The notes under the pieces are model-generated. The model searched no databases and was not told where the DNA came from. It worked only from the letters and a program-made list of their open reading frames with translations. Positions 11,955 to 48,488 of a DNA stretch of 64,000 nt are shown here, one piece after another. Within the stretch, counting starts at the first letter, position 1, and the number at the start of each line of letters is the position of its first letter. The DNA is taken from NCBI RefSeq assembly GCF_056712565.1, contig NZ_CM160072.1. One strand, written 5' to 3'. The translations under genes were made by a program, and so were the position numbers.

Positions 11955-12023
<69 letters not shown>

Positions 12024-12043
12024 CGCGTACAGGAAACACAGAA

Positions 12044-12078
12044 AAAAGCCCGCACCTGACAGTGCGGGCTTTTTTTTC
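12044..12078 (+). terminator. thr attenuator (rho-independent terminator)
   Basis: AAAGCCCGCAC-ctgaca-GTGCGGGCTTTTTTTT hairpin plus U-run between thrL and thrA. Confidence 0.88.
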
Positions 12079-20959: not shown

Positions 20960-21547
20960 ATGAATACTTTACGTATTGGCTTAGTTTCCATCTCTGATCG
21001 CGCATCCAGCGGCGTTTATCAGGATAAAGGCATCCCTGCGCTGGAAGAATGGCTGACATCGGCGCTAACCACGCCGTTTGAACTGGAAACCCGCTTAATC
21101 CCCGATGAGCAGGCGATCATCGAGCAAACGTTGTGTGAGCTGGTGGATGAAATGAGTTGCCATCTGGTGCTCACCACGGGCGGAACTGGCCCGGCGCGTC
21201 GTGACGTAACGCCCGATGCGACGCTGGCAGTAGCGGACCGCGAGATGCCAGGCTTTGGTGAACAGATGCGCCAGATCAGCCTGCATTTTGTACCAACTGC
21301 GATCCTTTCGCGTCAGGTGGGGGTGATTCGCAAACAGGCGCTGATCCTTAACTTACCCGGTCAACCGAAGTCTATTAAAGAGACGCTGGAAGGTGTGAAG
21401 GACGCTGAGGGTAACGTTGTGGTGCACGGTATTTTTGCCAGCGTACCGTACTGCATTCAGTTGCTGGAAGGGCCATACGTTGAAACGGCACCGGAAGTGG
21501 TTGCAGCATTCAGACCGAAGAGTGCAAGACGCGAAGTTAGCGAATAA
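20960..21547 (+). CDS. mog: Molybdopterin adenylyltransferase Mog
   Basis: ORF MNTLRIGLVSISDRASSGVYQDKGIPALEEW...; MoaB/MogA family. Start could be one codon earlier. Confidence 0.92.
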   Translation: MNTLRIGLVSISDRASSGVYQDKGIPALEEWLTSALTTPFELETRLIPDEQAIIEQTLCELVDEMSCHLVLTTGGTGPARRDVTPDATLAVADREMPGFGEQMRQISLHFVPTAILSRQVGVIRKQALILNLPGQPKSIKETLEGVKDAEGNVVVHGIFASVPYCIQLLEGPYVETAPEVVAAFRPKSARREVSE

Positions 21548-21593
21548 AAAAATCCCCCCAAGCGGGGGGATCAGACTGATGACAAACGCAAAA

Positions 21594-21694
21594 CTGCCTG
21601 ATGCGCTACGCTTATCAGGCCTACGATCTTCTTGCAATATATTGAATTTGCACGATTTTGTAGGCCGGATAAGGCGTTCACGCCGCATCCGGCA
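21594..21694. repeat. REP/BIME cluster between mog and satP
   Basis: CTGCCTGATGCGCTACGCTTATCAGGCCTAC and GTAGGCCGGATAAGGCGTTCACGCCGCATCCGGCA units in opposite orientation. Confidence 0.7.
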
Positions 21695-21751
21695 TAAACA
21701 AAGCGCACGTTGTTAACAATCTTATCCCTTCGAGCGGGGGGAGCTTAACAA

Positions 21752-22318
21752 TTAGTGAGACTCACCAATCGGCAGAACGGTGCGACCAAACTGCTCGTTC
21801 AGCACTTCACCCATCGCCAGATAGATTGCACTGGCACCGCAGATAAGACCAATCCAGCCGGCAAAGTGGATGATCGCGGCGTTACCGGCAATGTTACCGA
21901 TCGCCAGCAGGGCAAACAGCACGGTCAGGCTAAAGAAAACGAATTGCAGAACGCGTGCGCCTTTCAGCGTGCCGAAGAACATAAACAGCGTAAATATGCC
22001 CCACAGACCCAGGTAGACACCAAGGAACTGTGCATTTGGCGCATCGGTCAGCCCCAGTTTCGGCATCAGCAGAATTGCAACCAGCGTCAGCCAGAAAGAA
22101 CCGTAAGAGGTGAATGCGGTTAAACCGAAAGTGTTGCCTTTTTTGTACTCCAGCAGACCGGCAAAAATTTGCGCGATGCCGCCGTAGAAAATGCCCATGG
22201 CAAGAATAATACCGTCCAGAGCAAAATAACCCACGTTGTGCAGGTTAAGCAGAATGGTGGTCATGCCGAAGCCCATCAGGCCCAGCGGTGCCGGATTAGC
22301 CAACTTAGTGTTGCCCAT
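21752..22318 (-). CDS. satP: Succinate-acetate/proton symporter SatP (GPR1/FUN34/YaaH family)
   Basis: 188-aa six-TM ORF MGNTKLANPAPLGLMGFGMTTILLNLHN...; matches YaaH/SatP. Confidence 0.92.
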   Translation of the reverse strand: MGNTKLANPAPLGLMGFGMTTILLNLHNVGYFALDGIILAMGIFYGGIAQIFAGLLEYKKGNTFGLTAFTSYGSFWLTLVAILLMPKLGLTDAPNAQFLGVYLGLWGIFTLFMFFGTLKGARVLQFVFFSLTVLFALLAIGNIAGNAAIIHFAGWIGLICGASAIYLAMGEVLNEQFGRTVLPIGESH

Positions 22319-25898: not shown

Positions 25899-25986
25899 TC
25901 GCCCTATAAACGGGTAATTATACTGACACGGGCGAAGGGGAATTTCCTCTCCGCCCGTGCATTCATCTAGGGGCAAATCAAAAAAG

Positions 25987-27221: not shown

Positions 27222-27374
27222 TTACTCGGATTCGTAAGCCGTGAAAACAGCAACCTCCGTCTGGCCAGTTCGGATGTGAACCTCACAGAGGTCTTTTCTC
27301 GTTACCAGCGCCGCCACTACGGCGGTGATACAGATGACGATCAGGGCGACAATCATCGCCTTATGCTGCTTCAT
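27222..27374 (-). CDS. hokC: Type I toxin HokC (Hok/Gef family membrane toxin)
   Basis: 50-codon frame MKQHKAMIVALIVICITAVVAALVTRKDLCEVHIRTGQTEVAVFTAYESE inside the 80-aa ORF. Confidence 0.88.
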   Translation of the reverse strand: MKQHKAMIVALIVICITAVVAALVTRKDLCEVHIRTGQTEVAVFTAYESE

Positions 27375-27431
27375 TGCTCTCTTCTCCTTGACCTTACGGT
27401 CAGTAAGAGGCACTCTACATGTGTTCTGCAT
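27222..27431 (-). CDS. mokC: MokC, overlapping reading frame that modulates hokC translation
   Basis: Same frame as hokC starting at the upstream Met (MQNTCRVPLTDRKVKEKRA...), as in characterised hok/mok loci. Confidence 0.6.
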   Translation of the reverse strand: MQNTCRVPLTDRKVKEKRAMKQHKAMIVALIVICITAVVAALVTRKDLCEVHIRTGQTEVAVFTAYESE

Positions 27432-27477
27432 ATAGGGGGCCTCGGGTTGATGGTAAAATATCACTCGGGGCTTTTCT
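27423..27477 (+). ncRNA. sokC: Putative SokC antisense RNA (approximate position)
   Basis: Placed only by analogy to hok/sok loci, where Sok is antisense to the mok start region; no promoter or terminator was convincingly identified in the sequence. Confidence 0.3.
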
Positions 27478-27985
27478 CTATCTGCCGTTCAGCTAATGCC
27501 TGAGACAGACAGCCTCAAGCACCCGCCGCTATTATATCGCTCTCTTTAACCCATTCTGTTTTATCGATTCTAATCCTGAAGACGCCTCGCATTTTTGCGT
27601 AATCAATCTTTAGTACATTGTTTATTTTAACTCTTATGTGCGTTTTCATTTACAAAAGTTGAGATTATGAACAAGAGGTTTAAGTTATGCCTGAATGGTG
27701 AGTTATTACTGGAGAAAGTAATAGAAGATACAAAATATTCTTGTACAGAATTGAATTTTCTTTTTGTGAGGAAAAATGTTTATAAATCAATGAGTGATAT
27801 TTAAAATCGACACACTTTTTGAAACACGATACCTCCACACCCGGGGGTAAAAGTAATCTGCGATCTCCATCACGCTTTGCCATTCACCTTTAAATATACT
27901 TTCTGAGTCGTTCTTAATCAAAATGAATTATCTGATGTATTGATTTCTATGGAACCATAAAAAAAATGAATGGAGAGCATATTAT

Positions 27986-43090: not shown

Positions 43091-43261
43091 GAACATGTTA
43101 TATGATCTTTTTGTCGCTTAATGCCTGTAAAACATGCATGAGCCACAAAATAATATAAAAAATCCCGCCATTAAGTTGACTTTTAGCTCCCATATCTCCA
43201 GAATGCCGCCGTTTGCCAGAAATTCGTCGGTAAGCAGATTTGCATTGATTTACGTCATCAT

Positions 43262-43300
43262 TGTGAATTAATATGCAAATAAAGTGAGTGAATATTCTCT
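43262..43300 (+). promoter_or_regulatory. Tandem ARG boxes (ArgR operator) overlapping carAB P2
   Basis: TGTGAATTAATATGCA and GTGAATATTCTCT resemble ArgR half-site pairs (TGAAT...ATTCA) immediately upstream of the carA start. Confidence 0.55.
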
Positions 43301-47778: not shown

Positions 47779-48488
47779 GTGCACAGAAAACCCCCAGCTA
47801 GGCTGGGGGTTCCGGAAAGCTTTCAGCTTTGAGCCAGTTATTAAAACCCCTTTTGATTTGTTAAAACACCTTGCGGTCTGGCAACTGCAAGTGTCAAACA
47901 AGAAATCAAAAGGGGGTCCCAATGGGGAACGAAAAGAGCTTAGCGCACACCCGATGGAACTGTAAATATCACATAGTATTTGCGCCAAAATACCGAAGAC
48001 AGGTGTTCTACAGAGAGAAGCGTAGAGCAATAGGCTGTATTTTGAGAAAGCTGTGTGAGTGGAAAAGTGTACGGATTCTGGAAGCTGAATGCTGTGCAGA
48101 TCATATCCATATGCTTGTGGAGATCCCGCCCAAAATGAGCGTATCAGGCTTTATGGGATATCTGAAAGGGAAAAGCAGTCTGATGCCTTACGAGCAGTTT
48201 GGTGATTTGAAATTCAAATACAGGAACAGGGAGTTCTGGTGCAGAGGGTATTACGTCGATACGGTGGGTAAGAACACGGCGAAGATACAGGATTACATAA
48301 AGCACCAGCTTGAAGAGGATAAAATGGGAGAGCAGTTATCGATTCCCTATCCGGGCAGCCCGTTTACGGGCCGTAAGTAACGAAGTTGGATGCAAATGTC
48401 AGATCGTGTGCGCCTGTTAGGGCGCGGCTGGTAAGAGAGCCTTATAGGCGCATTTGAAAAACCTCCGGCTATGCCGGAGGATATTTAT
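47779..48488 (+). mobile_element. IS200-type insertion sequence (IS200/IS605 family); ends approximate
   Basis: Left-end perfect hairpin AAAACCCCCAGC-tagg-CTGGGGGTT, then a stem-loop (CCCCTTTTGATTT...AAATCAAAAGGGGG) sequestering the tnpA RBS, then a 152-codon tnpA and a right-end hairpin CCTCCGGC-tat-GCCGGAGG. Size about 0.71 kb. Confidence 0.75.
47922..48380 (+). CDS. tnpA: IS200 transposase TnpA (Y1 HUH transposase)
   Basis: 152-aa protein MGNEKSLAHTRWNCKYHIVFAPKYRRQVFY... with HUH motif (DHIHML) and catalytic Tyr region (RGYYVDTVG). Confidence 0.9.
   Translation: MGNEKSLAHTRWNCKYHIVFAPKYRRQVFYREKRRAIGCILRKLCEWKSVRILEAECCADHIHMLVEIPPKMSVSGFMGYLKGKSSLMPYEQFGDLKFKYRNREFWCRGYYVDTVGKNTAKIQDYIKHQLEEDKMGEQLSIPYPGSPFTGRK

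Follow-up and report, generated by a model that had tools for sequence, protein, structure and literature searches.

A BIME-1 element between the convergent mog and satP genes of Escherichia: an old spacer copy, with the 34-bp spacer of K-12 as a probable deletion

In the 64,000-nucleotide stretch of contig NZ_CM160072.1 (RefSeq assembly GCF_056712565.1) analyzed here, which we call the window, the genes mog and satP converge upon a shared intergenic spacer. The mog TAA occupies 21545-21547 on the plus strand, and the stop codon of satP, a minus-strand gene, lies at 21752-21754 (TTA on the plus strand), so that the spacer between them spans 21548-21751, or 204 bp. An earlier note, made from the sequence alone, had given this length and had described the spacer as filled with two oppositely oriented REP units; both its coordinates and the two inverted REPs were reproduced. 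The note had also put the K-12 spacer at about 34 bp, and precisely 34 bp (AAAAATCCCCCCGAGCGGGGGGATCTCAAAACAA) were measured in the K-12 derivative C600, as in two other E. coli strains, making the window longer by exactly 170 bp. Alignment with the K-12 region, a comparison the note had itself proposed, finds the REP cluster absent from K-12. The extra DNA consists of one complete 150-bp BIME-1 together with a second, decayed copy (H2) of a hairpin (H1) that precedes it. The E. coli strain ATCC 11775 is 100% identical to the window across a 504-bp query spanning the spacer, and a direct comparison of the two extends this identity to 1,104 bp. The features of the locus are collected in Table 1.

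Table 1. Features of the mog–satP region, in window coordinates.
Feature	Position	Strand	Basis
mog (molybdopterin adenylyltransferase), left flanking gene	20960..21547	+	ORF; RefSeq annotation of the identical ATCC 11775 region
Hairpin H1 (ATCCCCCC-AAGC-GGGGGGATC; ATCCCCCCAAGCGGGGGGATC), intact	21552..21572	-	Terminator scan, K-12 alignment, repeat D1
BIME-1 left flank AGACTGATGACAAACGCAAAAC	21573..21594	+	Homologous to the K-12 dppA-dppB element
Y-type REP TGCCTGATGCGCTACGCTTATCAGGCCTAC	21595..21624	+	Exact pattern match; none in shuffles
L linker with IHF-consensus-like site ATTCAATATATTG (21635-21647, -)	21625..21659	.	Rfam ES036, homology
Z-type REP GTAGGCCGGATAAGGCGTTCACGCCGCATCCGGCA, inverted relative to Y	21660..21694	-	Pattern match; inverted repeats I3, I5
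BIME-1 right flank TAAACAAAGCGCACGTTGTTAACAATCT	21695..21722	+	Homologous to the dppA-dppB element; dpp homology stops at ~21722
Hairpin H2 (TATCCCTTCGAGCGGGGGGAGC), decayed direct repeat of H1	21723..21744	.	Repeat D1, 84% identity
Haplotype-diagnostic cluster versus all empty E. coli alleles: CTTAAC versus CTCAAAAC, and synonymous satP changes at 21758 and 21761	21745..21761	.	
satP (acetate uptake transporter), right flanking gene, convergent with mog	21752..22318	-	ORF; annotation

The 150-bp unit at 21573-21722 is assembled from a 22-bp left flank, a Y REP, a 35-bp linker, an inverted Z REP and a 28-bp right flank, with the GTAG/CTAC ends of Y and Z oriented towards each other across the linker. 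The REP patterns give 1 and 3 real matches, as against 0.00 in shuffles of the window. In both DNA and RNA folds Y pairs with Z, and the entire spacer, taken as single-stranded RNA or DNA, becomes one long hairpin in which H1 is paired with H2 as well (z -5.1 to -6.8). The linker is conserved with the dppA-dppB element discussed below and with orthologous spacers, across which the Y REP shows 0-2 differences; the left flank has none in orthologues from the cryptic lineages, locus L101 excepted, and four in E. albertii. Within the linker, ATTCAATATATTG departs from the IHF consensus WATCAANNNNTTR by one mismatch, a match that is by itself at chance level, since a scan with this consensus gave 53 matches where 53.3 were expected and is so uninformative on its own. 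An IHF site has been reported for the L linker of BIME-1 elements (PMC3333891).

One Y and one inverted Z, joined by a long, conserved L linker that carries the IHF consensus, thus form a single 150-bp unit between the stop codons of two convergent genes, and the spacer element, judged by its sequence, is an ordinary BIME-1 (RIB/RIP), that is, a non-coding, non-autonomous repeat of ~150 bp. The Z unit would be Z1, as assigned from its context (the L-type linker and 91% identity to the dppA-dppB element); the match to naRNA4, a Y/Z2 cluster, falls below threshold (38.3 vs 59.5 bits). Small open reading frames within the spacer were judged spurious because they run through the REP units.

With the 150-bp core as query, a 150-bp match of 91-92% identity is found in essentially every E. 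coli genome. In K-12 MG1655 this match lies between dppA and dppB, with 137 of the 150 positions identical and the flanks homologous as well as the REPs, and it is the dppA-dppB element that provides the best match in every genome lacking the insert. The E. coli genome search returned no near-identical donor copy elsewhere; with the best paralogue only 91-92% identical, no recent donor is visible. The dpp copy, the closest known BIME-1, is built like the mog–satP copy: a Y REP and an inverted Z REP on the two sides of an L linker with an IHF-type site, and short conserved flanks. It differs in that it has no flanking hairpin repeat, whereas the mog–satP element is bracketed by two terminator-type hairpins. 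In other respects the latter resembles BIME-1 elements at large, which are single-copy, extragenic and situated at the 3' ends of transcription units, and for which the literature describes presence/absence polymorphism among isolates. Being absent from K-12, the mog–satP copy is missing from K-12-based BIME catalogues. BIME-1 elements, as RIB or RIP, were reportedly the subject of work by Gilson, Bachellier and Hofnung, by Boccard and Prentki in 1993, and by Oppenheim in 1993. A search of the literature for ES036/CssrF, or for a dpp RIP reference, found nothing relevant.

The hairpins H1, with its C6/G6 stem, and H2 constitute a direct repeat of ~20-21 bp, and in several lineages both share the core TCCCCC-GAGC-GGGGGA, loop included. 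Alignment identifies H1 as the counterpart of the single hairpin of K-12. Read on the minus strand, H1 has a 9-bp stem (21572-21551) followed by the T-run TTTTTATTCG; it has the make-up of a rho-independent terminator and is the putative terminator of satP. The terminator scan found no T-run terminator-like site on the plus strand or at H2, leaving H1 on the minus strand as the sole one in the region, and it detected none for mog on that gene's own strand in either allele. H2 is an intact hairpin with a 9-10-bp stem in E. albertii and other lineages, the stem being a perfect 10 bp in E. albertii NBRC 107761. Salmonella and the empty E. coli spacers have one hairpin.

In strains with the filled spacer, satP transcripts would run first through the decayed H2 and then through Z REP, L linker and Y REP before stopping at H1, which lies there ~180 nt past the satP stop codon. 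As H1 is the only T-run terminator for satP, the satP 3' UTR should carry Z, L and Y, and would be ~170 nt longer in filled strains. REP stem-loops impede 3'-5' exonucleases and so slow decay. The linker may in addition offer a putative IHF site between the two convergent units. An effect of stop-codon-proximal REPs on translation was reportedly described by Liang and colleagues in 2015; the REPs considered here, 48 nt from one stop codon and 57 nt from the other, lie too far away for it. The net functional effect is probably small, modest at most and possibly neutral.

The linker also brings a covariance-model match to a small RNA. Rfam family RF02751, ES036 (CssrF), matches full-length at 21617-21659 on the minus strand with 50.6 bits, above its gathering score of 37.6, and on that ground the region could be read as encoding a functional sRNA, the polymorphism then being the gain or loss of an sRNA gene. 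We think this very unlikely. The 43-nt model amounts to the L linker plus the edges of the REPs, and it also matches the dppA-dppB BIME and all orthologous spacers tested, though not the K-12 or Salmonella mog–satP spacers; as it matches every BIME-1 examined, what it recognizes is a family of repeats, not one particular gene. A promoter scan of 21300-22000 yielded no sigma-70-like site, and the match falls inside the expected satP 3' UTR, so that any RNA from it would more readily be a processing product. Elsewhere in the window, gathering-level Rfam matches lie at 11959-12078, 25909-25986, 27372-27524 (minus strand), 43211-43263 and 47789-47912 (Thr leader, tpke11, the sok antitoxin RNA of a hok/sok locus, ES003 and STnc490).

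Among 5,426 complete E. coli genomes, the full-length allele is present in 466 (~9%; 467 with a second query), all of them with B2-type flanks. With flanks included, identity to the window is 99% or more in 471 records, a level that every filled genome reaches. The remaining genomes give a 334-bp span for the 504-bp query and hence have the 34-bp allele. The spacer measures 204 bp by annotation in ATCC 11775, CFT073 and 536, and Nissle 1917, NU14, APEC O18 and MCJCHV-1 are likewise filled; SE15 (spacer 34 bp), E2348/69, K-12 and O157 lack the filled allele. That allele presumably marks B2 lineages of the ST73, ST95, ST127 and ST1193 type, and the strains without it include E2348/69, an EPEC strain, and SE15, presumably of ST131. 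The earlier note had called the cluster strain-specific and a useful strain marker, and had proposed a population survey of this junction. An allele carried by hundreds of genomes in several well-known B2 lineages is not specific to a strain; its use is as a marker of lineages, not of strains.

Two further observations concern the spacers of individual genomes. In E2348/69 (L090 1291-2882; NC_011601.1 9790-11381) the single, empty-type hairpin contains the IS4-family element ISEc13, with end CTGTCTCTTATACACAAATCCCC and flanking repeat CCGAGCGG, and in a divergent Escherichia lineage (L099 2089-2480; CP057162.1) an IS with an ISEc13-type end sits in H2, which explains why the L008 contig ends at H2. 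One IS family has hit the C-run/G-run hairpins of the mog–satP spacer twice. The RefSeq locus tags of CFT073 and 536 (L088, L089) skip one number between mog and satP (for example C_RS00055, C_RS00065), those of SE15 do not, and the skip suggests that a feature formerly annotated in the spacer was later dropped.

The state of the spacer outside E. coli bears directly on the polarity of the difference. E. albertii NBRC 107761 (L007) has a 207-bp spacer in which two hairpins enclose the BIME-1, oriented as in the window, and when metagenomes were scanned for filled alleles carrying the ancestral end of satP, only two contigs came up, both from E. albertii and both with this arrangement; in the contig scan, among the 80 matches listed, two were Escherichia loci and the rest came from other genera with a different gene order. 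SCPM-O-B-8794, a GTDB species representative labelled E. coli, is also filled, and its mog DNA is 92.9% identical to the window. Looking up its Mog protein led to eight more assemblies whose spacers are filled (186-207 bp) or filled with an IS, and which, where measured, diverge from the window by 2.8-3.8% in coding sequence; the Mog proteins of all Escherichia and Salmonella fall into one 90% cluster and are of no use for choosing species. L008/L099 and seven further non-coli assemblies have filled spacers with the same junctions. Two of the eight, PDIF01 and PDIJ01, are published Escherichia strains from cryptic clade II (PMC6639607). The filled state extends beyond E. coli to E. albertii, to cryptic clade II and to three or more additional non-coli Escherichia lineages; none of the sampled loci could be assigned to E. 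fergusonii or to clades I and III-V. In Salmonella, mog and satP are adjacent, and the 55 bp between them contain a single hairpin and lack a BIME.

Because E. albertii, clade II and the other non-coli lineages are filled at the same junctions, the ancestral spacer is the filled one, and the 34-bp form is derived. The comparison demonstrates, at the level of spacer sequences, that the BIME-1 entered before the sampled Escherichia lineages split, and after or apart from the Salmonella lineage. In one of the non-coli loci (L101; CP057686.1, 2089-2274) the spacer is 186 bp, a 20-bp deletion having removed the left flank of the BIME-1 along with the first part of the Y REP, and this is a second, independent route of decay of the element. 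The Salmonella enterica spacer (L094 3092-3146) has the hairpin ATTCCTCCC-GGTG-CGGGAGGAAT and holds GATACTGAT, a 9-mer with which the E. albertii left flank of the BIME-1 also begins, with a chance probability of ~0.07; it may be a remnant, or nothing. In Citrobacter, Enterobacter, Kluyvera and others (L009-L032, L092/L093), a gene for a 440-aa MFS transporter lies between mog and satP and overlaps the 3' end of satP; it is missing from Escherichia and Salmonella, which makes the short spacer itself the scar of a gene loss.

Mobile REP pairs offer an obvious comparison. In the REPIN/RAYT system, reportedly described by Nunvar in 2010, Bertels and Rainey in 2011 and Ton-Hoang in 2012, mobility is said to be due to a Y1 transposase. 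The spacer resembles a REPIN in that two inverted REPs give one long single-stranded hairpin. Unlike REPINs, however, the copy is orthologous across species, its best paralogue is 8-9% diverged and there is no sign of recent mobility; outgroup Escherichia lineages are filled at the site, which is not the pattern of a recently transposed REPIN, and the flanking direct repeat is not what IS200/IS605-like chemistry is expected to leave.

The earlier note had spoken of a REP insertion, and the corresponding reading would be a recent de novo entry of a REP/BIME element into a K-12-like 34-bp spacer, for example by a REP-associated transposase, in one strain or in a B2 lineage. The absence of the element from K-12 and from ~91% of E. 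coli genomes agrees with such an event, as do the ~20-bp flanking direct repeat, which resembles a target duplication, and the known presence or absence of BIME-1 elements among isolates. The polarity is nonetheless wrong. E. albertii, clade II and other non-coli Escherichia carry the same BIME-1 in the same orientation at the same junctions, and the window's divergence from those orthologous copies is about that of the neighbouring genes or greater; the nearest paralogue, that between dppA and dppB, is too distant (91-92%) to have been copied recently; and the flanking haplotype differences are held in common with clade II, which an insertion cannot produce. Moreover, Y1 transposases of the IS200/IS605 type leave no target duplication (PMC3333891). 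We regard a recent insertion as extremely improbable, and a de novo insertion in B2 as essentially excluded.

How the 34-bp spacer may have arisen is suggested by its own sequence. The K-12 spacer can be read as H1+ATCT, as found in L101 and L008, joined to CAAA(A)CAA, which flanks H2 on the right in the E. albertii/L101 type, and from this fit we infer a deletion between H1 and H2. The BIME-1 and one hairpin copy would have been lost by misalignment or recombination between the ~20-bp repeats, with the palindromic Y/Z pair helping by folding back in single-stranded DNA. Slippage is well known as a route by which sequence is deleted between short direct repeats on either side of a palindrome. 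In the precise-excision model for Tn5 and Tn10, a transposon is lost between its flanking direct repeats in a process stimulated by inverted repeats. As in that model, the flanking repeat is present in the empty mog–satP allele as a single hybrid copy, and the lost segment is a long palindrome; unlike there, the repeats are ~20 bp long, imperfect and hairpins themselves, and the deletion is deduced from comparison.

H1 and H2 may have begun either as a target duplication or as two pre-existing hairpins. One could go further and propose that the pair is the integration footprint of the BIME-1, a ~20-bp terminator hairpin duplicated upon copy-in at a hairpin target, unlike the duplication-free Y1 chemistry of the IS200/IS605 type, with the same repeats later serving precise loss and with spacer allele classes older than the Escherichia species boundaries being exchanged on tracts of a few hundred bp. 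We consider this combination speculative and rather improbable.

The filled B2 genomes pose a separate question, as their spacers sit within an unusual haplotype. Against SE15 the window differs by ~0.3% in the flanks, but 4-5 events, among them the two synonymous changes in the last satP codons (21758 and 21761), fall within 21-26 bp to the right of H2, a clustering with a Poisson P of ~1e-6 to 1e-8 vs the B2 background. The clade II loci L097, L102 and L103 agree with the window at these diagnostic positions and have the same decayed H2, shortened by 2 bp; E. albertii, L098, L100 and L101 agree there with the empty alleles. The cluster of differences shared with clade II points to short-tract recombination or old polymorphism, and haplotype-discriminating sites place the left border of the B2-specific tract within 21503-21560 and its right border within 21761-21814. 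Spacers are mosaic within clade II as well, where L097 and L104 differ by 0.9% in talB, mog and satP taken together but by 10.8% in the spacer and have different H2/right-flank types: the assortment of spacer alleles is independent of the genes on either side. At the end of satP (21755-21765), two synonymous changes make GTGAGACTCAC, a perfect palindrome that is also present in the clade II loci L097 and L102-L104; the K-12 sequence, GTGGGATTCAC, has two mismatched palindrome positions. A quasi-palindrome template switch was ruled out as the source of these changes, which correct different arms and have the same states in clade II.

We lean, by a small measure of confidence over an even chance, towards import of the filled spacer into the ancestor of the ST73/ST95/ST127-type B2 lineages by recombination with a non-coli Escherichia related to clade II. 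An empty spacer would have been replaced on a tract of 200-310 bp in the ancestor of the filled B2 lineages. No donor allele was found among the sampled lineages. The window's spacer differs from clade II at 9 of 204 positions and its left half is closer to L098/L100, which, together with the mosaic nature of spacers, keeps alive the alternative that a B2 sublineage simply retained the filled haplotype by vertical descent from the E. coli ancestor, the deletion allele having spread elsewhere by descent and recombination. Such retention starts from a state that is ancestral in the genus, and between the window and clade II the spacer divergence (4.4%) is close to that of the coding sequence (3.7%), as vertical descent would have it; recombination near a 170-bp heterology is moreover expected to be rare and could preserve an island of old divergence. 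On the other hand, SE15 and E2348/69 combine B2-type flanks with the common empty allele, so that several replacements would be needed in place of one import. The ratio of spacer to coding divergence is 1.2-1.3 for the window and clade II as against 1.5-12 for all other lineage pairs, and 1.2 seems low for vertical descent. The GAGACT at the satP end, finally, is derived relative to E. albertii, L098, L100 and L101, and occurs only in clade II and the filled B2 genomes. Retention is on balance the less likely of the two, though a serious contender.

The account as a whole, in which a BIME-1 between H1 and H2 is old in the genus, the 34-bp spacer arose by deletion and the B2 haplotype is shared with clade II, we hold at a probability of roughly 80%. 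The locus is a standard BIME-1 with a type of polymorphism described since 1997, and nothing in it alters existing knowledge of REP/BIME elements. What is new is local, namely that this copy is ancestral in the genus, that K-12 shows the deletion, that the B2 allele is an old haplotype shared with clade II, and that a duplicated hairpin brackets the element. For practical purposes, 204 vs 34 bp is a simple PCR-sized marker. Its length sets a large group of B2 ExPEC lineages (the CFT073, 536, Nissle, NU14 and APEC O18 types) apart from all other E. coli, the B2-flanked strains SE15 and E2348/69 included. The filled, empty and IS-disrupted alleles occur in near-identical backgrounds and are usable to measure the effect of a BIME-1 on convergent 3' ends. 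For the comparison of Escherichia genomes, K-12 is not the ancestral reference at this locus: what appears relative to K-12 as an insertion is the old state.
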